NCBI GenBank assembly: GCA_001794435.1
Contig: MGJU01000014.1
Location: 27,494-91,493, forward strand
Direction of reading: 5' to 3'
Length of the DNA stretch: 64,000 nucleotides
Source of the DNA: Candidatus Yanofskybacteria bacterium RIFCSPHIGHO2_02_FULL_43_17
GTDB lineage: Bacteria; Patescibacteriota; Minisyncoccia; 2-02-FULL-40-12; GWA2-44-9
Part shown: positions 43,141-64,000 of the stretch, piece by piece
Layout: each line of letters opens with the position of its first letter
How positions within the stretch are numbered: the first letter of the stretch is position 1
Translations under genes and position numbers: made by a program
The notes under the pieces: model-generated
Told to the model about the DNA's origin: nothing
The model's input: only the letters and a program-made list of their open reading frames with translations
The model's database searches: none

Positions 43141-44814
43141 ATGCCTGAAGACAAATCAACAAAAAAAGAGGAGGAGCTGGAGAAAAAACTCTTAGATATG
43201 AGAGGGCGGGCGGAAGAAGACAAATATAAAGCTCTTGCCCAACAGTTGAACCTTCCCTACTCCAATCTTATATCAATTCCCATCGATACTGATGCGCTAT
43301 CTTTATTAAGCGAAGAAGAAGCTCGCTCAGCCAGTATCGCCCCAATATTCCAAAAGGACTCAAAAATCATTGTAGTAACAGTGGACCCTACCAACCCCGT
43401 GACTCAAAAGGTTATTTCCAGACTGAAAGAGAACAGCGAGGTTGATGTGATTTTGACAAATCCTCGATCCCTTCAAAACATTCTGAAAAGGTACCGGGAC
43501 ATAAAAAAGGCGGATGTTTTTGAGGTCGGAGCAATAGAAATACGAGAGAAAGAGTTAGACCGGCTTGAAGGTGAGATAAAAAACATCTCAGATATAAAAG
43601 AGCGAATGAAAAAAATGTCCGCCACAAGCCTGTTAGAAATGATCGTGGCTGGAGCCTTAAAAACAGAGGCATCGGATATACACCTGGAACCCGAATCGGA
43701 CAAGATCCGGCTGAGATACCGACTCGACGGTCTTTTGCATGACATAGCCTCTTTAGATGAACCGTCTTATGAGAAGGTGTTGAATAGAATAAAGGTTTTG
43801 TCGAAAATCAAACTTAATATTCACAACACCCCCCAAGATGGACGATTTACCATACGTCTGAAAACCGTATCTATAGAGGTGAGGGTGTCGGTCTTACCAA
43901 GCGAATTCGGCGAAACCGTCGTAATACGGCTTCTTGATCCAAGAACAATTAAAAGAAGCCTCGAAGAGCTGGGGATGAGAGACGACTTGCTAAATAAGGT
44001 TAAGGAAGTCCTGAAAAAACCGACGGGAGCCATCTTTACGACCGGTCCAACCGGTTCCGGTAAAACAACGATGCTATATGCTTTCGTCAGCTACCTTAAC
44101 TCACCCGAAACCAAAATAGTAACAATAGAGGATCCGATAGAATACCACATCGAGGGTATATCCCAGACCCAAGTTGACACCCATAAAGGATATACTTTTG
44201 CCAACGGCTTAAGGGCCATCGTTAGACAAGACCCTGACATTATCCTTGTAGGAGAGATAAGGGATGCCGAAACGGCCAATATCGCTTTACAATCCGCCCT
44301 TACGGGGCACTTAGTACTGTCAACTATCCACACAAATGACGCCGCCGGCACCATTCCCCGCTTGATAGATCTCGACATAAGGCCTCAAATAATAGCCCCT
44401 GCCATAAATGTGGCGATGGCCCAGCGCCTAGTCAGAAAATTGTGTCCCAACTGCAAGAAAATGGAAAAGATCGAGACAGAAGACTTGAAAAAAATAAAAG
44501 CACTATTAGAACCATTGTCGAAATTTCGAAATATCGATATGTCAAAATATCCGAAGCTAGACGCCAGTTTGGAGATAGGCACCCCTGGAAAATGCACAGA
44601 ATGCAATGATTCGGGCTACAAAGGGCGTATCGGTGTCTTTGAAGCGTTTGAGATGTCGCGGGAAATGGAGAAATTAATATTGAGATCGCCGGCAATGTCG
44701 GAGGTAAGGGATCTAGCTATAACCGAGGGCATGGTAACAATGCTGCAAGATGCGTACATCAAGCTGATCAACGGAGTAACATCGATGGAAGAAATAGACA
44801 GAGTGTTAGGATAG
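43141..44814 (+). CDS. pilB: type IV pilus/type II secretion assembly ATPase (PilB/GspE family)
   Basis: GPTGSGKTT Walker A, IEDPIEY, ILVGEIRD, tetra-Cys zinc motif CPNC...CTEC. Confidence 0.9.
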   Translation: MPEDKSTKKEEELEKKLLDMRGRAEEDKYKALAQQLNLPYSNLISIPIDTDALSLLSEEEARSASIAPIFQKDSKIIVVTVDPTNPVTQKVISRLKENSEVDVILTNPRSLQNILKRYRDIKKADVFEVGAIEIREKELDRLEGEIKNISDIKERMKKMSATSLLEMIVAGALKTEASDIHLEPESDKIRLRYRLDGLLHDIASLDEPSYEKVLNRIKVLSKIKLNIHNTPQDGRFTIRLKTVSIEVRVSVLPSEFGETVVIRLLDPRTIKRSLEELGMRDDLLNKVKEVLKKPTGAIFTTGPTGSGKTTMLYAFVSYLNSPETKIVTIEDPIEYHIEGISQTQVDTHKGYTFANGLRAIVRQDPDIILVGEIRDAETANIALQSALTGHLVLSTIHTNDAAGTIPRLIDLDIRPQIIAPAINVAMAQRLVRKLCPNCKKMEKIETEDLKKIKALLEPLSKFRNIDMSKYPKLDASLEIGTPGKCTECNDSGYKGRIGVFEAFEMSREMEKLILRSPAMSEVRDLAITEGMVTMLQDAYIKLINGVTSMEEIDRVLG

Positions 44815-51374: not shown

Positions 51375-52499
51375 TTAACTTCTAAGAGGCATTATAAGAT
51401 AGGTGAGATCTTTGTTGTTGTCGTGAGGTTTTATTATCAACGGATTACCATTACCGGTGAATTCAAGTACAACCTTCTCGCTGTCCATTATCTTCAGTCC
51501 GTCCAATAAGTAGTGGTAATTGACTGAAATTTCAAATGGATCATTCTTCAATACGGCGGGAATAGTTGTTTCTATCTCGCCCTTATCAGAATTTTTGGAT
51601 TTTATAACAATCTCGTCTTTTGAACATAGGAGTTTGATGTCAGAAATATTCGAGGAAAACAATCCTGCCAGACGGATATCTTTTTCAAGGTCATCTTTCT
51701 GCACAAGTATGCGAGATAAGAATTTACTCGGTATTACTTTCTTGTAGTCAGGGTAGTTCCCGTCAATAAGACGCGAAACGAGTTCGAAATCATTATTGTA
51801 AAATAAAATCTGGTTATCTCCTATTTTTATTTCTATGTCTCCCTCAATATCGTTTGTTATCCTTATCAACTCCATAACAGTATTTCTAGGTATTATCACG
51901 CTATATTGACCGGAGTTTTTTGTGTCAAAACTTACTTCCGATAAACGAAAACTGTCAGTAGCAGCAAAGGTTAACTTCTTATCATTAACACTAGCATAGA
52001 CACCTGCTAACTCCGGCCTTGTCTCAGATAAAGCAATTGCGTCAGCGACAGAATAAAGCATATTTCTCAATATTTTTGACGATACCAGAGTAATTGGGTC
52101 TTCTTTTAATTTAGGAATAATTGGGAAATCTTTAGGATCAAACCCCAATATTTGTGTCTTGTATTTATCGGAGTTGATGAATAAAATGTTGTTTTTGGTA
52201 TGTAATGTGATTTTTTCGTCGGATATATTATTTATAAAATCTGAAGATACTCTTGCTGGTATAGCTATTTCCCCCACCTCGTCTATCTTCGCTCCGATTG
52301 TACAATTGATGCCAATCTCTAAATTCGTTGAAGATACTCTTAAACGACCATTGTCGGTTTTTATAAGTATATTATTCAATATTGGCAGAGATGGATTTCT
52401 CGAAACTATTTTTTCAACCAAACCCAAGGCTCGTCTAAGATTTTTTTGATTTACTGTAACTTTCATTTTATTAGAAGTAGTCCCGCCAAAGTCATTCAA
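51375..52499 (-). CDS. dnaN: DNA polymerase III beta sliding clamp
   Basis: MKVTVNQKNLRRAL N-terminus, three-domain length, position after dnaA. Confidence 0.9.
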   Translation of the reverse strand: MNDFGGTTSNKMKVTVNQKNLRRALGLVEKIVSRNPSLPILNNILIKTDNGRLRVSSTNLEIGINCTIGAKIDEVGEIAIPARVSSDFINNISDEKITLHTKNNILFINSDKYKTQILGFDPKDFPIIPKLKEDPITLVSSKILRNMLYSVADAIALSETRPELAGVYASVNDKKLTFAATDSFRLSEVSFDTKNSGQYSVIIPRNTVMELIRITNDIEGDIEIKIGDNQILFYNNDFELVSRLIDGNYPDYKKVIPSKFLSRILVQKDDLEKDIRLAGLFSSNISDIKLLCSKDEIVIKSKNSDKGEIETTIPAVLKNDPFEISVNYHYLLDGLKIMDSEKVVLEFTGNGNPLIIKPHDNNKDLTYLIMPLRS

Positions 52500-55493: not shown

Positions 55494-56198
55494 TTGTTTA
55501 ATCTCTACAACGAAATCCTATATCGACCCCTATTCAATGCTATGGTCTATCTCCAGGGCATAATTCCTGGTGGCGATTTGGGGCTGACTATTATTATCCT
55601 AACCGTAGTGATAAGGGCGTTGTTTGCGCCTCTCTCTTTGAAAACCATCAAATCTCAGCGATCACTCAGAGAGTTAGCTCCCAAGATCGATGAGGTAAAA
55701 GCGAAATTAAAGAATGACACCGCCGCTCAATCAGCCGCAATACTGAAACTTTATAAAGAAAACAACGTCAACCCTCTGGCCGGATGCTTGCCTCTTTTGG
55801 TACAGATACCGATATTGATAGCCTTGTACCAAGTCTTTATAAAGGGAATAACTCCGGAAAGCTTAACCCTCCTTTACAGCTTCATTTCCACGCCGGAGCT
55901 TACTGACCACAATTTTCTGGGCTTGCTTGATGTTACTAAAAACAACAGGCTCCTTACGATTATTGCCGGAGGGCTTCAGTTTATTCAGTCCAAGCAGGCG
56001 GCGGCTTTACAGGGCGATAGCGGGTCTCCGCCAGCTGGTGGAAAAGAACTGGCGGCTATCAGCAAGCAAATGTTGTATTTTTTCCCCGTTATGATTATAA
56101 TTATTGGTTGGAATTTGCCGGCCGGCCTTATCCTTTATTGGGTAACGACAACGGTTTTTTCAATGTTTGAGCAGTATTTCATTAAGACAAAGAAATAA
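55494..56198 (+). CDS. yidC: membrane protein insertase YidC (short form)
   Basis: five TM helices; C-terminal LILYWVTTTVFSMFEQY pattern. Confidence 0.85.
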   Translation: MFNLYNEILYRPLFNAMVYLQGIIPGGDLGLTIIILTVVIRALFAPLSLKTIKSQRSLRELAPKIDEVKAKLKNDTAAQSAAILKLYKENNVNPLAGCLPLLVQIPILIALYQVFIKGITPESLTLLYSFISTPELTDHNFLGLLDVTKNNRLLTIIAGGLQFIQSKQAAALQGDSGSPPAGGKELAAISKQMLYFFPVMIIIIGWNLPAGLILYWVTTTVFSMFEQYFIKTKK

Positions 56199-56458: not shown

Positions 56459-56935
56459 ATGGCACAAAAATTAGACAAGGACGATGTTTTAAGAGCCGTA
56501 ACGAAAGTGGCTGGTTTTATGAATATTGAATGTCAAATTGAAGCGAAAGAAGAACCTGCCGATAAACACGGAGAAGGAGCTGTTGTTGTGTCTGTTCAGA
56601 CGCTTGATAACGCCAGATTTTTAATTGGCAAGAACGGCCAAAACCTGAAGGCTTTGGAACATGTTCTTAGGGCTATGCTGGTTAAAGACGGGAAAGAAGG
56701 CACCATCGTTTTAGATGTGAATGACTATAGGAAGTCCCGAGCTACCTATCTTGTTGATGTGGCTAAACAAACAGTTGCAAGAGTAAGGAATACGCAGAAA
56801 GCCGAAGCCTTGTTTCCAATGTCGGCTTATGAAAGGCGGATAGTCCATATGGAGCTTGCGGCTTATCCTGATATTGCTACAGAAAGTGTCGGCGCGGAAC
56901 CGCAAAGAAGGGTTATAATCAAACCGTATCCATAG
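56459..56935 (+). CDS. jag: Jag/KhpB-type RNA-binding protein (KH plus R3H)
   Basis: IGKNGQNLKALEHVL KH motif; R3H-like YERRIVHMEL. Confidence 0.8.
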   Translation: MAQKLDKDDVLRAVTKVAGFMNIECQIEAKEEPADKHGEGAVVVSVQTLDNARFLIGKNGQNLKALEHVLRAMLVKDGKEGTIVLDVNDYRKSRATYLVDVAKQTVARVRNTQKAEALFPMSAYERRIVHMELAAYPDIATESVGAEPQRRVIIKPYP

Positions 56936-57451: not shown

Positions 57452-58516
57452 CTATTTAATTTTCAGAGCATACAGCTTGTCGTCTATCTCATTGAGTATG
57501 TAAATAACATCTCCTAGCGGGCCAAGAGCCATCTCTTTAGTAAGCAGATTAATGCTTGGTACCGAAACCAGTATTTTAGAACCATCGGCCACGCTTATTC
57601 TGTAAAATTCGTCCTTGAGTTGGGTTTGGTTTTTAACTCCGCAAATAACCTCATCCCTATTTAACCAGGCGCACTTTGAAGCGTTAGAATTTACATCCAG
57701 AGAAACGATTGCGTCATTGTTAGCAATATCTATGTAAAACAGGCGTTCAGAACCAGTGCCATTTTTGGCAGAAAATAATATTTTTTCGCCATCGGGCGAC
57801 CATTTTACGCCAAGATCGTATTGATAGGACAGTATTTTATTGAGGGCGCCTTCTTCTTTTAGAACAAGCAGATCGCCATACCCGTCTTTATCGTAGGATA
57901 CTATGGATATAAAATCATCCCTTGGCCAGCTGACTGTTACGGCGCCGAGCCGTGTTTTAAGGGCACGCTTAATGATTTTCCCGGCTTTGGATATGAGCAA
58001 CTCTCCCACCCCGTCGTTAACAAGCAGATACGTCGCTTGATCGCCGTGAGGAGAGAAAGCAGCCGACCTTAAATTACCCGCCAAGTTTGATTTTTCGCCT
58101 GTTTTTAAATTTAAATAAACCGTTTTTCTGTTGTTCCCAGCGTCATAAAAAGAGTAGATAACAGAGTCGCCTGTCGGCGATAGCAGTACTTCCGATATAT
58201 CGGTTCGACCCAAAGAGGCCAGAACTTTTTCTCTGATATTGGCCGCATCTATTTCAATAATATCACCATTCTTGTCTACGGCTATTATATTTTCAGAACC
58301 AAGGCTGACAAACGAAACAAGCCTTCTGGAGCTAAGGGGCAGTGTTTTTGGAATTGTGGTTTCAAGCAACTCCGCCTTAGTGTTGCTATTGAATCTTTGT
58401 ATCAATGAATTGCTTTGGGTGCCGAGCCCGCCTCCTAGAGTTAAAAGACGGCCGGATAAAAAGGCAATAGCTCCTAATGTTATGAATATTGAAACCAATA
58501 ATATTTTTTTCTCCAT
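57452..58516 (-). CDS. membrane-anchored TolB-like beta-propeller protein
   Basis: N-terminal TM; repeated hydrophobic-Asp/Gly blades (LLSPTGDSVIYSFYD, ILFSAKNGTGSERLFYIDI). Confidence 0.45.
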   Translation of the reverse strand: MEKKILLVSIFITLGAIAFLSGRLLTLGGGLGTQSNSLIQRFNSNTKAELLETTIPKTLPLSSRRLVSFVSLGSENIIAVDKNGDIIEIDAANIREKVLASLGRTDISEVLLSPTGDSVIYSFYDAGNNRKTVYLNLKTGEKSNLAGNLRSAAFSPHGDQATYLLVNDGVGELLISKAGKIIKRALKTRLGAVTVSWPRDDFISIVSYDKDGYGDLLVLKEEGALNKILSYQYDLGVKWSPDGEKILFSAKNGTGSERLFYIDIANNDAIVSLDVNSNASKCAWLNRDEVICGVKNQTQLKDEFYRISVADGSKILVSVPSINLLTKEMALGPLGDVIYILNEIDDKLYALKIK

Positions 58517-58517
58517 A

Positions 58518-59210
58518 TTATGCGATTCCCGTTTCTCCGGTTGCTTCCAAAACCGAATCCGACGCTTCCCTTGCGTTTTTATAGCTCTCTTTTTCTGCTC
58601 TATAGCTTAACCAAATTCCAACCAGCATCCAGGGAACAAGCGCCAGAAAAGGCACCAGATTTAAAGTACCGGCCGCCACGGATCTCAATATTGGGCTTTT
58701 GGCGCTTTTGGCTACTCCTCTTAAAGCCACTCTCGCTCGCCTTACGGTTCTCAAATGAAGTTTACGGTATAGCTGTTTTGCTCCCGGAATTTTGCGGCTT
58801 AATCGGGCCACTCTTAAAATGTTTCTTTCAGCATTGGCTATGCGCGCCACTAAGGCGTCAATTTTTTTCTGGATATTTTCAGCATACTCATCTGCTCTTT
58901 TTTGTTTTGTATTGGTGAACCAGAAAATAAGGATTATAACTGCCGAAACGGCGAAAGAAATTATCCTCCCAACGATTGCGCCCAGACCGGTTAGGTCAAT
59001 AAAATCAACGATATCAACTATCACTGCCAATGATGCGAGGATTGAGTATTTGAATAACGAGGGGCGATGATATGTTTGTCCTTGGTTATATAATTCCACT
59101 GCTTCAGCTTGCGCGGCATAAAGCTCTTGTTCTGCGGCAAGCTCGTCGGCATACTGCTCCTCTTCGGCTACCTCTTCGTCAGTATTTCTAGTTGTTTGTT
59201 CTTCGGGCAT
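58518..59210 (-). CDS. membrane protein of T4SS-like module, unknown role
   Basis: acidic N-terminus, 2-3 TM helices, basic central segment. Confidence 0.4.
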   Translation of the reverse strand: MPEEQTTRNTDEEVAEEEQYADELAAEQELYAAQAEAVELYNQGQTYHRPSLFKYSILASLAVIVDIVDFIDLTGLGAIVGRIISFAVSAVIILIFWFTNTKQKRADEYAENIQKKIDALVARIANAERNILRVARLSRKIPGAKQLYRKLHLRTVRRARVALRGVAKSAKSPILRSVAAGTLNLVPFLALVPWMLVGIWLSYRAEKESYKNAREASDSVLEATGETGIA

Positions 59211-59260: not shown

Positions 59261-61009
59261 TTAGCTTCTCAACTTTGCCCACTCTTCCTTGGCTTTTTCT
59301 ATTTCAAGTATCTGTCTCGGATCGGAGGTTATTATCTGGTCTTCGGCATAAGATGCCAGAACTCTGATGCCGATGTGGTTTTGGCCGACAAAGAAAAGTC
59401 CGAAACCGACCCTTGCTTCAAGCAGATAATATTTCTCTCCGTCAGTAAGGTTAAATGTTTTCTGGACTATATCTATCGCCGCAGGCGACTGCTTCATCAG
59501 AATTTGCATAGACGAGTTGGTTACGATGCTTTTGCCTTTGTCGGTGGAAAGCATGTCGTTGATGTCCTGCGATATCGTGGTCAGGCCGAGATAATATTTT
59601 CTGGCTCGTTTTGCAATGTTGGACAGAAAGTCCGCGCCGATATCGTATTTCATAAGCCACCACGCCTCATCGACTATCAAAAGCCGCTTCTTCTGGACTC
59701 TTCTTACGGATGTCCATATGTGATTGAGTATCGAGTACATTGCAATCGGCCTTAGCTCTTCTTCCATGTCTCTGATACTGAATACAACAAGGTTATTGTC
59801 CAATAAAACATTGGTCGGCATGTTTAAAAATCCAGCAAAAGTACCTTCAGTATATTTTTTAAGCCGTATCGCCATTGATTCGGCTCCGGTAAGCCCTTCA
59901 AGTATGTTTTGGAGGTCGGATAAGACCGGAGGCGTGGCATTGGTGAAATTGGAATCCGGGGTTATGTCTTTTATCGCGTATGTTTGTATCAGCGCCTCGT
60001 CGAGTATTGAATTTTCTTCCGGTGTCAGTTCCCCGAGCATCAGCCGCAGAAGACCAGTAAGGTCTAAAATATGCGATTTGAACACATCAGCCGGCGACTC
60101 GTCTTGTTTTGGAACAGGAAGGTCCAGGGGGTTTATATGTTGGTCGGAAGTGATGGATATTTTAATGGGTGAGCCGCCAACTGTCTCGGCTAGGTATTTG
60201 TACTCGTCCTCGGGGTCGATGATCAATACTTGGGTACCGAATATCAAACTTCTCAAGATTTCCAGCTTTACCGTGTAACTCTTCCCCCCACCTGATTTTC
60301 CAAAAACAACGGCATTGTAGTTTTCTAGTTGGAATCTGTCGAACAAAACCAAGGAGTTGTTGTGAGTGTTGATGCCATAGAGTATACCGTCATGAGAGGT
60401 CAGGTCAAAAGAAACAAACGGGAAAATCGACGATAAGGGCTCAGTATTGAGAGAAGTATGAATATTGAGACGGTCATCGTTTATGGGCAGTGTAGAGATG
60501 AATCCCTCCAGCATTCTGAATGTTGCCACTTTTGGAAAGACGAGCTGGTATTCCAACATGCCTCGTAATTTGTTTTCCGTCTCATCCAGTTCTTTTAAGC
60601 TGTTTTCGTAGATTGTTATGTACACGCCTAGCTCGAAAAATTTATCTGTTCCTTGCTGAAGCCGGTCTCGCAAGTTCTCTATGTCCTGAATGGCTGTCTC
60701 CAGAATGGGGTCTCTGACTTTTCCCTTAGCCGCTTCTTCCATGGTTTGGGACTCAAGGCGGCTAAGCTGGTCGCGAAGCTGTTTTAAAACCGTTGTCGTG
60801 TTTTTGGGCAGTACGAATATCGAAATATCGAAAACTCTGTCCAGGTTTATAACTGGAGAAAACCACTTTGTCTGCAAATACCTTGGATATGTCGCTAGAA
60901 AAATAGTTCGGGCAAACTTATCCCCCACCTGAATGTAAGAAGGAGCGATATTAAATGCTCCCGGTGCAAGATATTCTGACATTTTATTTTTCTGTTGCTC
61001 AGCAGCCAT
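59261..61009 (-). CDS. VirB4/TrbE/CagE-family conjugative-type ATPase (C-terminal ~3/4 of a split gene)
   Basis: Walker A VVFGKSGGGKSYTV, Walker B LLIVDEAWWLM, family-typical N-terminal IAPSYIQVGDKFARTIFLATYP. Confidence 0.8.
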   Translation of the reverse strand: MAAEQQKNKMSEYLAPGAFNIAPSYIQVGDKFARTIFLATYPRYLQTKWFSPVINLDRVFDISIFVLPKNTTTVLKQLRDQLSRLESQTMEEAAKGKVRDPILETAIQDIENLRDRLQQGTDKFFELGVYITIYENSLKELDETENKLRGMLEYQLVFPKVATFRMLEGFISTLPINDDRLNIHTSLNTEPLSSIFPFVSFDLTSHDGILYGINTHNNSLVLFDRFQLENYNAVVFGKSGGGKSYTVKLEILRSLIFGTQVLIIDPEDEYKYLAETVGGSPIKISITSDQHINPLDLPVPKQDESPADVFKSHILDLTGLLRLMLGELTPEENSILDEALIQTYAIKDITPDSNFTNATPPVLSDLQNILEGLTGAESMAIRLKKYTEGTFAGFLNMPTNVLLDNNLVVFSIRDMEEELRPIAMYSILNHIWTSVRRVQKKRLLIVDEAWWLMKYDIGADFLSNIAKRARKYYLGLTTISQDINDMLSTDKGKSIVTNSSMQILMKQSPAAIDIVQKTFNLTDGEKYYLLEARVGFGLFFVGQNHIGIRVLASYAEDQIITSDPRQILEIEKAKEEWAKLRS

Positions 61010-61028
61010 TGTTGTAAGCTAAAGGTTT

Positions 61029-61646
61029 CTAGTCGTCCTTGGTTGGATTATAGAGCTGATAATACAAGTTCTTAAGTTCCTCGTCCTCAAGCTGGGTTAT
61101 CTGAAGGCCTAATCCGGCAAGGCCGCCGTAAACCAGCTCGGCTCTTTGGAGCAACTGGTTTTTGTAAGAGTTGAATTGTTCGCCCGTCAGTTCTTTGGGT
61201 ATGGTCTGGGGACTCAATATTCCCTTTAAGCTTCGGATCAACCCCGTGGCTTCCGGTTTTTCGTAGATGTAAAAAGGAACCGCGATATAGAACCTCTTAG
61301 ACATTATGTTGGACAAACTCGAGAGTTCTTTTATAAATCTTGAATATTCTGAGGCTTGGATCTTCATAAGTTCGTTGGTTGTCGACTCGACAATCTCGCC
61401 CACGATCTTAAGATAGCCGCTTATGTCCAGTTCTCTGGAGCTGACAATGATTTGAAGAGGAAAATCAACGGAATTGAGAAAATTTTGAAAACCCTGAAGT
61501 ATCGCTACTTGTTCATCGGCGGATCTTAACTCAAAATTTATAGCCGAAATCTCTAAAACCATCCTGAGAGAGCCATTCTTAAGAACAACCACCCCTTCAC
61601 GGATATCAGAAATAGGGACTAAATTTTCGGTGGATTGGTTGGGCAT
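61029..61646 (-). CDS. VirB4 N-terminal-domain-like protein (upstream part of split VirB4)
   Basis: PISDIREGVVVLKNGSLRMVLEISAINFELRSADEQVAILQGFQNFLN resembles the VirB4/TcpF N-domain; stops 19 nt before the ATPase ORF. Confidence 0.55.
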   Translation of the reverse strand: MPNQSTENLVPISDIREGVVVLKNGSLRMVLEISAINFELRSADEQVAILQGFQNFLNSVDFPLQIIVSSRELDISGYLKIVGEIVESTTNELMKIQASEYSRFIKELSSLSNIMSKRFYIAVPFYIYEKPEATGLIRSLKGILSPQTIPKELTGEQFNSYKNQLLQRAELVYGGLAGLGLQITQLEDEELKNLYYQLYNPTKDD

Positions 61647-61750: not shown

Positions 61751-62059
61751 TTAGATTCTAGTTTTTAAATTATTATCCTCGTCTTTTCTGAATATGTATC
61801 GTTTAGGGTTTAATAAATATGAAAGTAGATACGCGATGTAATTGATTAACGGCATCCCGTCTATTTTCAGGAAAGCAAAAGCCAGAAATATCGCCGCTAT
61901 CGGTACTCCGGCGGCGAAGAATATAAATCCACCCTGCGTAGTCGTAAACAGAAGAAATAGTATCGACACTCCGCCGGCTACCCACAGAAACTGCTTCAAA
62001 GTAAGCGGGCCGACCAATTTCGTCTCTGTTTCTATGAATTGTGGTAATTGAAACCTCAT
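61751..62059 (-). CDS. VirB3/PrgI-like small two-TM protein
   Basis: 102 aa, two adjacent TM helices, located directly upstream of VirB4 as in Gram-positive-type T4SS. Confidence 0.45.
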   Translation of the reverse strand: MRFQLPQFIETETKLVGPLTLKQFLWVAGGVSILFLLFTTTQGGFIFFAAGVPIAAIFLAFAFLKIDGMPLINYIAYLLSYLLNPKRYIFRKDEDNNLKTRI

Positions 62060-62532
62060 TGATTTTGTTTACGTAGATCTATCACATTGCTTTGCTCTGC
62101 GTTTGTGTTCTGTGATGACTGCTGGCTTTGGTTGGATCTGTTTTGCGCTATTCTGTCTTTAAATTTTTCTCTTTGCATATTTTTAATATCCTCTATCGCC
62201 AGAGCGAATAGTTCGCTGACTATTTTGTTGGCAATTTGATTTGCGATGCTCGCCTCAACTCCCAGCTTTGAAGATATTAATGCAGGGAAGTCGCTCAAGA
62301 AAGCGTCGGCAAGAAGGACGTCTCTTACTATCCGCGATAAGTCGGAAGATTGATTCTGGTCCAAGCCAACTTTTTTAGAAAGAAATTCTAAGTAGTAATC
62401 AGTTGTAGCAGAAGTCATAACATCTTTCACCTTAAGTGGTAATTTTATAAATTTATTCGCGAAAATATCCCAGTCCTTTTTGACTAGTAGTAATTCCTCT
62501 AGGTCCACTTGGGAAGGACTATATATATTCAT
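62056..62532 (-). CDS. hypothetical soluble protein of T4SS-like module
   Basis: 158 aa, Gln/Ser-rich tail, no motif. Confidence 0.4.
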   Translation of the reverse strand: MNIYSPSQVDLEELLLVKKDWDIFANKFIKLPLKVKDVMTSATTDYYLEFLSKKVGLDQNQSSDLSRIVRDVLLADAFLSDFPALISSKLGVEASIANQIANKIVSELFALAIEDIKNMQREKFKDRIAQNRSNQSQQSSQNTNAEQSNVIDLRKQNQ

Positions 62533-62544
62533 CTTAAGGGGGTT

Positions 62545-64000
62545 TTAAGGGATTGTTAAAGCAAAAATCTGTGCCAAACTTCTTGTGTCCGTTGCATTAT
62601 CTTGCAGTCCTTTCTTGAACCTCTCGCCACCACCAGGCTTGGGCATAATCGGAGGACCCCCTGGAGTTGTGGGCGGTCCACCGGGGATAGAAGGTTCAGA
62701 TGTTTGAAGTGCATTTATCTTTGCTTGAACCGCATTGACAAAATCCGGGTTTCCCCAACCGCCGTCATAGCCTATTTCTGCCAAAGCATCAGCTTTCATT
62801 CTCGTTACTCTAAAATTAAGAACCGCTCCCCTGGTTGCTAGCGGAGTTCCAGCGGCATCTCGCACTACTCCAAGAGCAGCTTTGGCGTCGACGGTAGCCA
62901 TGAAGTTCTTTTTCTCAGCTTTTTCTAGGAATTTGATTTTTTCAGCATCATTAGCATACAAGTTGGCAGCGGCCGCAAGCGCCGGCGCGGTCATCATGCT
63001 CGGGTCACCTTTTTCAGCCATTACTTCAGCTGACTTTCTTTTTACCTCATTATCAGGAGCATTGTTGTACCACGTTTGTCTATCTGTTTGAGATAGATTT
63101 TCGAAGTCAACCTTTGTGCCAAAATCAACCGCTTCTTTAGATCCAGCTCTGTACATACTATAAGTGTCAAACATCTCAGCGCCAGTCAAAGCACCTCTTT
63201 CTGCTAGAATTTCTCTAACAGCCAGTTTTTCTTGGTCGCTTCCTGTAGTCATGAGACCGCGCAGTGTCGTATTATCAGTAATGCGTCTGGCAGCTTTTTT
63301 AAGAAAGTTTGCTTTTTCTCCTGGTAAGGCATATAACGACTGAGCTCTTTGAATAGAATCGACGGTATCAAACTCGCCCTTCTCAGCCATAACTTCGGCA
63401 ACTTTTCTCTTAGCTTCTACGTCTGTCAGGTCTTTGTACCAATCCCCTCTATCCGTGCTGGAAAGTTTACCGTAGTCAATGCTTTTAGCGAACTGTCTGC
63501 CGGCCAGCGTGTTGTTGCCGCCGTACAGTTCGAATGTCTTTCTGTAATCATCGCTGGTTAATAATCCTCTATCCTTCATCACTTCTCTGGCAGCCAACTG
63601 GTTTCTAAGCGGACCTTTGTCCATCAACTTTCTAAGTTCTGCTGGGTCGGTAATTCTTTCAAATCTCTTCTTGATTTCCCCGATATCTTTAGCTTGTTGT
63701 TCTTCCAAAAATCCGACCTTGCCGCCGGTAATACGGCCAAGGGCATCTCTCATATATCCTGTTTGTCGCGCTATTCTGGCCTCTTCTTTTTCCCCAAGTT
63801 CGTCAAACCTTCCTTTCACCGCTCTGCCGGCAGCTGTCCACCCTATCCTATTTGCCACCCTATCTCTTCCCCATTTTGCCACTTGCACTACTCCCGTTCC
63901 GGAAAACGTTCCGGCACTCATTGCCACTTTTGTGCCGCCTATCATAAAGATGGCCACAAGAAAATAGTAAAATATCAGTCCAAAAGTAAAATCGGATTGC
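62545..64000 (-). CDS. membrane-anchored protein with two ~100-aa internal repeats and Pro/Gly-rich C-terminus (5' end runs past the window edge)
   Basis: tandem repeats ...LTSDDYRKTFELYGG..VEAKRKVAEVMAEKGEFD / ...LTGAEMFDTYSMYRAG..NEVKRKSAEVMAEKGDPS; frame stays open to position 64000. Confidence 0.45.
   Translation of the reverse strand, partial: QSDFTFGLIFYYFLVAIFMIGGTKVAMSAGTFSGTGVVQVAKWGRDRVANRIGWTAAGRAVKGRFDELGEKEEARIARQTGYMRDALGRITGGKVGFLEEQQAKDIGEIKKRFERITDPAELRKLMDKGPLRNQLAAREVMKDRGLLTSDDYRKTFELYGGNNTLAGRQFAKSIDYGKLSSTDRGDWYKDLTDVEAKRKVAEVMAEKGEFDTVDSIQRAQSLYALPGEKANFLKKAARRITDNTTLRGLMTTGSDQEKLAVREILAERGALTGAEMFDTYSMYRAGSKEAVDFGTKVDFENLSQTDRQTWYNNAPDNEVKRKSAEVMAEKGDPSMMTAPALAAAANLYANDAEKIKFLEKAEKKNFMATVDAKAALGVVRDAAGTPLATRGAVLNFRVTRMKADALAEIGYDGGWGNPDFVNAVQAKINALQTSEPSIPGGPPTTPGGPPIMPKPGGGERFKKGLQDNATDTRSLAQIFALTIP

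Follow-up and report, generated by a model that had tools for sequence, protein, structure and literature searches.

Does Candidatus Yanofskybacteria bacterium RIFCSPHIGHO2_02_FULL_43_17 encode the VirB4 ATPase of a type IV secretion system (T4SS) in two separate genes, or do two neighbouring open reading frames (ORFs) represent the remains, or a faulty reading, of a single one? The question arises from a 64,000-nt stretch of contig MGJU01000014.1 (positions 27,494 to 91,493; hereafter the window, whose own numbering is used throughout), on the minus strand of which a 205-aa ORF (ORF A) is followed, after 19 nt, by one of 582 aa (ORF B). The initial annotation, made without database searches, considered a genuine split, a pseudogenised gene and an assembly or sequencing indel. 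We conclude that VirB4 very probably exists here in two pieces, namely a TrsD-like protein (ORF A) folded like the initial ~200 residues of canonical VirB4, and an ORF B product that contributes what remains of the N-terminal domain together with the hexameric ATPase domain, both encoded behind a gene for a PrgI/VirB3-like protein.

The two reading frames as parts of VirB4

The two ORFs, their combined length (205 + 582 = 787 aa) and the boundaries of the junction (Table 1) agree with the initial annotation. The frame of ORF B is displaced by one base with respect to that of ORF A. The spacer does contain the TAG triplet that had been described as in-frame, but as read from the sequence this triplet lies in the frame of ORF B, not of ORF A. 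Since the stop codon of ORF A precedes this B-frame TAG, no single indel can join ORF A and ORF B, for which two or more changes would be required. The absence of a Shine-Dalgarno (SD) motif, also remarked upon initially, is correct in that we found no SD-like motif upstream of ORF B, but it carries no weight, because 35 of the 43 long ORFs in the window likewise have no 4-nt SD-like motif within 20 nt before their start codon. Translation initiation in this Candidatus Yanofskybacteria genome appears to proceed largely without SD sequences. The 3' end of ORF A harbours a sigma-70-like match, situated ~38 nt upstream of the ORF B start codon, which could be an internal promoter, but such matches are enriched only ~1.7-fold over shuffled sequences in this region.

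ORF B displays a Walker A motif (GKSGGGKS, residues 237-244) and a Walker B motif (VDEAW, residues 446-450). Its Pfam matches are P-loop_TraG, AAA_10 and DUF87, accompanied by a weak match of residues 31-177 to positions 64-198 of the 204 in the CagE_TrbE_VirB profile. Among the NCBIfam models, NF045971 (VirB4-like, CD1110 family) is matched with 355.7 bits, above its cutoff of 325, whereas the scores for TIGR00929 and for the F-type TraC model stay below the respective cutoffs. In a sequence search against the PDB, residues 208-561 matched the VirB4 C-terminal domain structure 4ag5 (E 1.7e-39), and residues 231-528 matched residues 445-734 of TrwK, the VirB4 protein of R388 (E 1e-4). The offset of the latter alignment, ~214 residues, corresponds to the length of ORF A. 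By these matches ORF B is a VirB4-family ATPase, predicted to comprise the latter part of the N-terminal domain, followed by the C-terminal domain with the Walker A and B motifs.

What ORF B leaves uncovered in the VirB4 models is the N-terminal part, and this is supplied by ORF A; as a single polypeptide, ORF B does not span a VirB4 model in full. ORF B covers positions 181-733 of 752 in the CD1110-family model and 289-893 of 894 in VirB4_plasma, and ORF A matches positions 11-129 of the former and 101-233 of the latter (E 9e-13). As both ORFs map consecutively on the same two NCBIfam models, ORF A and ORF B in succession are collinear with an undivided VirB4 protein. ORF A also matches NF041427, the TrsD/TraD family, over its residues 4-80 only, with 25.7 bits (cutoff 200) and an E-value of 8.4e-6. 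Judged from its sequence, it is thus a remote TrsD homologue and, by the NCBI rule, not a member of NF041427. A Pfam hmmscan of ORF A returned no family, the scanned copy probably being without the recent model PF26593; this domain ("TraC-like") is listed in the precomputed annotation of a 100%-identical protein (P0001) and of all 120 listed homologues.

For ORF A, sequence comparison with the PDB by phmmer gave nothing meaningful, and among the PDB comparisons only the fold search detected VirB4. An AlphaFold2 model, for which an alignment of 44 diverse family members served as input, was confident (mean predicted local distance difference test score 88, predicted template modelling score 0.76). 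When this model was submitted to Foldseek, ranks 1-14 were all occupied by TrwK/VirB4 chains (probability 0.99-1.00, best E-value 8e-4, TMq 0.52), so that R388 TrwK/VirB4 is the top and sole strong structural match. We place ORF A at the N-terminal end of VirB4 because of the collinear matches to the sequence models; the Foldseek output did not include the matched TrwK residues. ORF A is accordingly predicted to have a VirB4-like fold, corresponding to about the first 200 residues of a one-piece VirB4. The NCBIfam models and the fold match together uphold the original assignment of the upstream ORF to the N-terminal part and of the downstream ORF to the Walker A/B ATPase. An internal duplication, with ORF A homologous to the N-terminus of ORF B, was also considered and rejected (hhalign probability 0.1%).

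The junction in related genomes

ORF A has a 100%-identical counterpart on record from Candidatus Yanofskybacteria bacterium RIFCSPHIGHO2_01_FULL (Patescibacteria/candidate phyla radiation), and 17 contigs are listed with the identical 205-aa protein. We inspected the 120 best matches of each ORF. All 120 homologues of ORF A, down to 59% identity, are stand-alone proteins of about 200-250 aa, mostly 200-230 aa, and all 120 homologues of ORF B measure about 550-594 aa. An exhaustive search of representatives yielded 2,338 relatives of ORF A; among the best 150, which were examined, 149 are without a B-like part. It had been proposed that orthologues which are all single ORFs would speak against a genuine split; the listed homologues of A and B are overwhelmingly encoded by two ORFs. 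Proteins of the ORF A family with 280-443 aa were considered as fragments of fused proteins and rejected, as BLASTP revealed no homology to ORF B and low-complexity tails instead. Several family members (P0253, P0258, P0277, P0290, P0330, P0336, P0381 and others) have C-terminal tails of 100-240 aa that are rich in Pro, Gln, Thr and Ala and apparently disordered.

Whether the split is shared by orthologues, a point raised by the initial annotation, was addressed at 80 loci from species-representative Patescibacteria genomes, anchored on the alignment of the B family (B identity 54-92%) and spanning Yanofsky-, Azam-, Moran- and Nealsonbacteria, Paceibacterota and others. A homologue of ORF A lies directly upstream of the ORF B homologue at every one of the 80 loci, and the junction is split at all 79 loci where it could be resolved. 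The relative frames of A and B at these 79 junctions are 0 in 24 cases, 1 in 30 and 2 in 25. Where the start of B was callable (78 junctions), the distance from the stop of A to the start of B lies between -14 and about +460 nt with a median of 17 nt, including 11 overlaps, 25 distances of 0-10 nt and six above 150 nt. A PrgI-like gene is found upstream of A and B at 77 of the 80 loci, on the same strand at 76, and is the first gene of a conserved PrgI - TrsD-like - VirB4 triad.

One locus of a metagenome-assembled genome (L003:4491-6653) gave the appearance of an in-frame A-B fusion, which we rejected, as a run of 100 N at the junction marks a scaffold gap. A genuine fusion does exist in P0356, a protein of 898 aa composed of a TrsD-like domain, a Pro/Ala-rich linker of ~120 aa and a VirB4 ATPase. 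It is encoded at L082:4001-6697 (also at L083 and L084) and occurs on five contigs, with three sequencing runs among the places shown. Here too a PrgI-like gene lies upstream, overlapping the start of the fusion by 4 nt.

Between the window and its relatives synonymous sites are saturated, whereas amino-acid identity is retained (54-78% for A, 81-92% for B). Compared with the closest relative, the non-synonymous divergence (dN) of A is 0.15 and the ratio of non-synonymous to synonymous divergence (dN/dS) of B is 0.017; for most pairs dN/dS is uncomputable owing to the synonymous saturation, so that the conclusion is a qualitative one. Non-synonymous change remains far below the saturated synonymous change, which points to both ORF A and ORF B as conserved genes under selection.

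Known counterparts and competing explanations

Placed end to end, the pair agrees in overall domain content and order with one-piece VirB4 proteins, such as R388 TrwK, Agrobacterium tumefaciens VirB4, the CD1110-family proteins and VirB4 of the Mycoplasma integrative conjugative element: the predicted fold of ORF A is found within TrwK, and the C-terminal ATPase domain of VirB4 is present in ORF B. The difference is that the one-piece proteins are single polypeptides of ~750-900 aa, whereas here the first ~200 residues would be a separate gene product.

A split counterpart is known from the Staphylococcus aureus plasmid pGO1 (pGO1/pSK41, where TrsD-TrsE equal TraD-TraE; MPF-FATA, pGO1 subclass), which shares the order of a VirB3-like protein, a protein of ~220 aa and a VirB4-like ATPase. 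The annotated genes are trsC (VirB3-like), trsD (227 aa) and, after a 14-nt gap, trsE (672 aa, DUF87). The whole of pGO1 TrsD could be aligned by hhalign with the profile of the ORF A family (A 7-200 with TrsD 35-216, probability 86%, E 5.2e-6). Residues 14-550 of ORF B aligned with residues 38-617 of TrsE at 25% identity (E 3e-41). As the latter alignment begins within ~25 residues of both N-termini and ORF A spans TrsD, the break falls at the same place in the two systems. The likeness to pGO1 TrsD is nevertheless very remote (~22% identity in hhalign; 25.7 bits, where NCBIfam demands 200). Also, the pGO1 system belongs to a conjugative plasmid with relaxase and coupling protein, whereas the locus described here is chromosomal and adjoins dnaA and dnaN.

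ORF A might alternatively be an independent accessory factor of VirB4 N-terminal ancestry, e.g. an assembly chaperone, a regulator or a substrate adaptor, and not a stoichiometric part of the ATPase. We regard this as distinctly unlikely in view of its strict adjacency and order with virB4 at all 80 loci and with PrgI at 77, of the tight junctions, which suggest coupled expression, of the natural fusion to the ATPase, and of the one-piece VirB4 proteins that hold the same module at the same position.

Two adjacent ORFs in different frames that add up to the size of VirB4 do have the look of a pseudogene, that is, of a virB4 gene of ~790 aa that was intact until a recent frameshift or nonsense mutation disrupted it in this genome. 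This bare appearance is all that speaks for such a decay, which we consider highly improbable: different species have the same split at all 79 resolved junctions, with each of the three relative frames represented, ORF A and ORF B are both of full length and conserved with non-synonymous change far below the saturated synonymous change, and the N-terminus of ORF B coincides with that of pGO1 TrsE. It is likewise very improbable that the true genome contains a single ORF and the contig an assembly or sequencing indel at 61000-61040. A stop in the frame of A is followed by one in the frame of B, so that one indel cannot fuse the ORFs; the identical 205-aa protein is present on 17 contigs, independent assemblies from many studies share the two-gene structure, and the sole apparent fusion among the 80 loci turned out to be a scaffold gap. 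Programmed frameshifting or stop-codon read-through, which would join both ORFs into one protein and for which the short junction of 19 nt could be invoked, has next to no probability, since relative frames 0, 1 and 2 are about equally common, junctions vary between overlaps and distances of hundreds of nt, and both frames contain stops, leaving room for neither a conserved slippery site nor a fixed geometry. The survey of split junctions and the sequence conservation therefore lead us to reject pseudogene, assembly indel and programmed recoding, and among the options raised at the outset it is the genuine split that stands.

A VirB4 in two pieces may be produced and assembled as follows. The genes of ORF A and ORF B would be co-transcribed, and ORF B would be translated by coupling or re-initiation across the very short junction, without the help of an SD sequence. 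Both proteins would then assemble non-covalently into a complex equivalent to VirB4. In the structures of the R388 inner-membrane complex, the membrane-proximal position of VirB4 (TrwK) contacts VirB3, and it is this position that the TrsD-like module might take. The break would fall into a naturally flexible linker, and the domain boundary would therefore tolerate the cut.

Gene neighbourhood and biological meaning

ORF A and ORF B are part of a tightly packed string of genes on the minus strand (Table 1). The two genes downstream of ORF B are less conserved partners, with the 230-aa protein detected at 14 and the TolB-like 354-aa protein at 31 of the 80 loci; the upstream 158-aa and 470-aa genes were detected at 17 and 13 loci, respectively. 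The 158-, 230- and 470-aa proteins had no match in general Pfam and NCBIfam scans, which included no search aimed at VirB6, VirB2 or relaxase. The 470-aa protein holds two similar segments, …KRKVAEVMAEKGEFD… and …KRKSAEVMAEKGDPS…. The replication-origin gene set of dnaA, dnaN, yidC and jag is situated 2-8 kb from the ORF A/ORF B pair, in agreement with the published remark that T4SS genes of Patescibacteria are often located near dnaA. Elsewhere in the window we noticed a gene for a PilB/GspE-type ATPase with T2SSE (E 2e-116) and MshEN domains, presumably part of a type IV pilus machinery, which is also typical of Patescibacteria.

Table 1. Position of the ORF A/ORF B pair and of other features in the window
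Feature	Position	Strand	Remarks
ORF A, TrsD-like protein	61029..61646	minus	205 aa; TAG stop 61031-61029
ORF B, predicted VirB4-family T4SS ATPase	59261..61009	minus	582 aa; ATG 61009-61007
Spacer between ORF A TAG and ORF B ATG	61010..61028	minus	19 nt; aaacctttagcttacaaca
TAG within spacer	61021-61019	minus	frame of ORF B
Sigma-70-like match	61075..61047	minus	TTAAGA, 17-nt spacer, TATAAT; 10/12
PrgI/VirB3-like membrane protein	61751..62059	minus	102 aa; Pfam PrgI 40 bits, cutoff 27
158-aa ORF	62056-62532	minus	no family match; overlaps PrgI-like ORF by 4 nt
470-aa ORF	62545-63957	minus	no family match; upstream in gene string
Two genes downstream of ORF B	57452..59210	minus	230 aa; 354 aa, TolB-like beta-propeller
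dnaN	51375-52499	minus	
dnaA	52814-54187	minus	
yidC	55494-56198	plus	
jag/KhpB	56459-56935	plus	
PilB/GspE-type ATPase	43141-44814	plus	T2SSE, MshEN

TrsD homologues have been described as the most abundant T4SS component in Patescibacteria, usually adjoining virB4 and with remote homology to the N-terminus of VirB4 (Quinonero-Coronel et al. 2025, PMC12102498). The same study counted 2,272 TrsD homologues in 2,221 assemblies, 1,664 of which adjoin virB4, located the T4SS genes of Paceibacteria near dnaA and dnaN, and regarded the Patescibacteria T4SS as probably having no role in conjugation. The present locus has the composition by which MPF-FATA-like T4SSs of Patescibacteria are recognised there, with homologues of virB4, TrsD and PrgI/VirB3 on the chromosome near dnaA and dnaN. 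Because a TrsD homologue lies directly upstream of a Patescibacteria-clade virB4, with PrgI/VirB3 beside and dnaA/dnaN near, the ORF A/ORF B locus is an instance of the published TrsD-VirB4 pair, from which it differs in nothing substantive. As this arrangement was published in 2025 and is thus already known, current understanding is unchanged; what we add is the fold comparison, in which TrwK ranks first for the TrsD-like protein, the survey of junctions and the rare natural fusion. For annotation it follows that two genes, TrsD-like and VirB4 ATPase, should be kept, neither merged nor flagged as a frameshifted pseudogene.

A further reading, which we consider rather unlikely, is that the separately encoded N-terminal module of VirB4 is an independently evolving and possibly exchangeable or regulated subunit and not the outcome of neutral fission, the split point shared with pGO1 going back to a single ancient fission. 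It draws on the disordered tails of 100-240 aa in some lineages and on the re-fusion through a long linker in one lineage. If true, an independent subunit would make the T4SS of Patescibacteria suitable for a task other than conjugation, e.g. import from the host, and the split point common to pGO1 TrsD/TrsE would mark a deep branch of monoderm T4SSs.

For the TrsD-like half of a VirB4 in two pieces, the match to the N-terminal region of TrwK and the natural fusion provide a concrete, testable hypothesis. The pair described here is part of a secretion system whose essential role in epibiotic life has been reported for the single Patescibacteria strain tested, Southlakia epibionticum, in which the TrsD-VirB4 pair is essential according to Wang et al. 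(2023), as far as that work is cited in PMC12102498.
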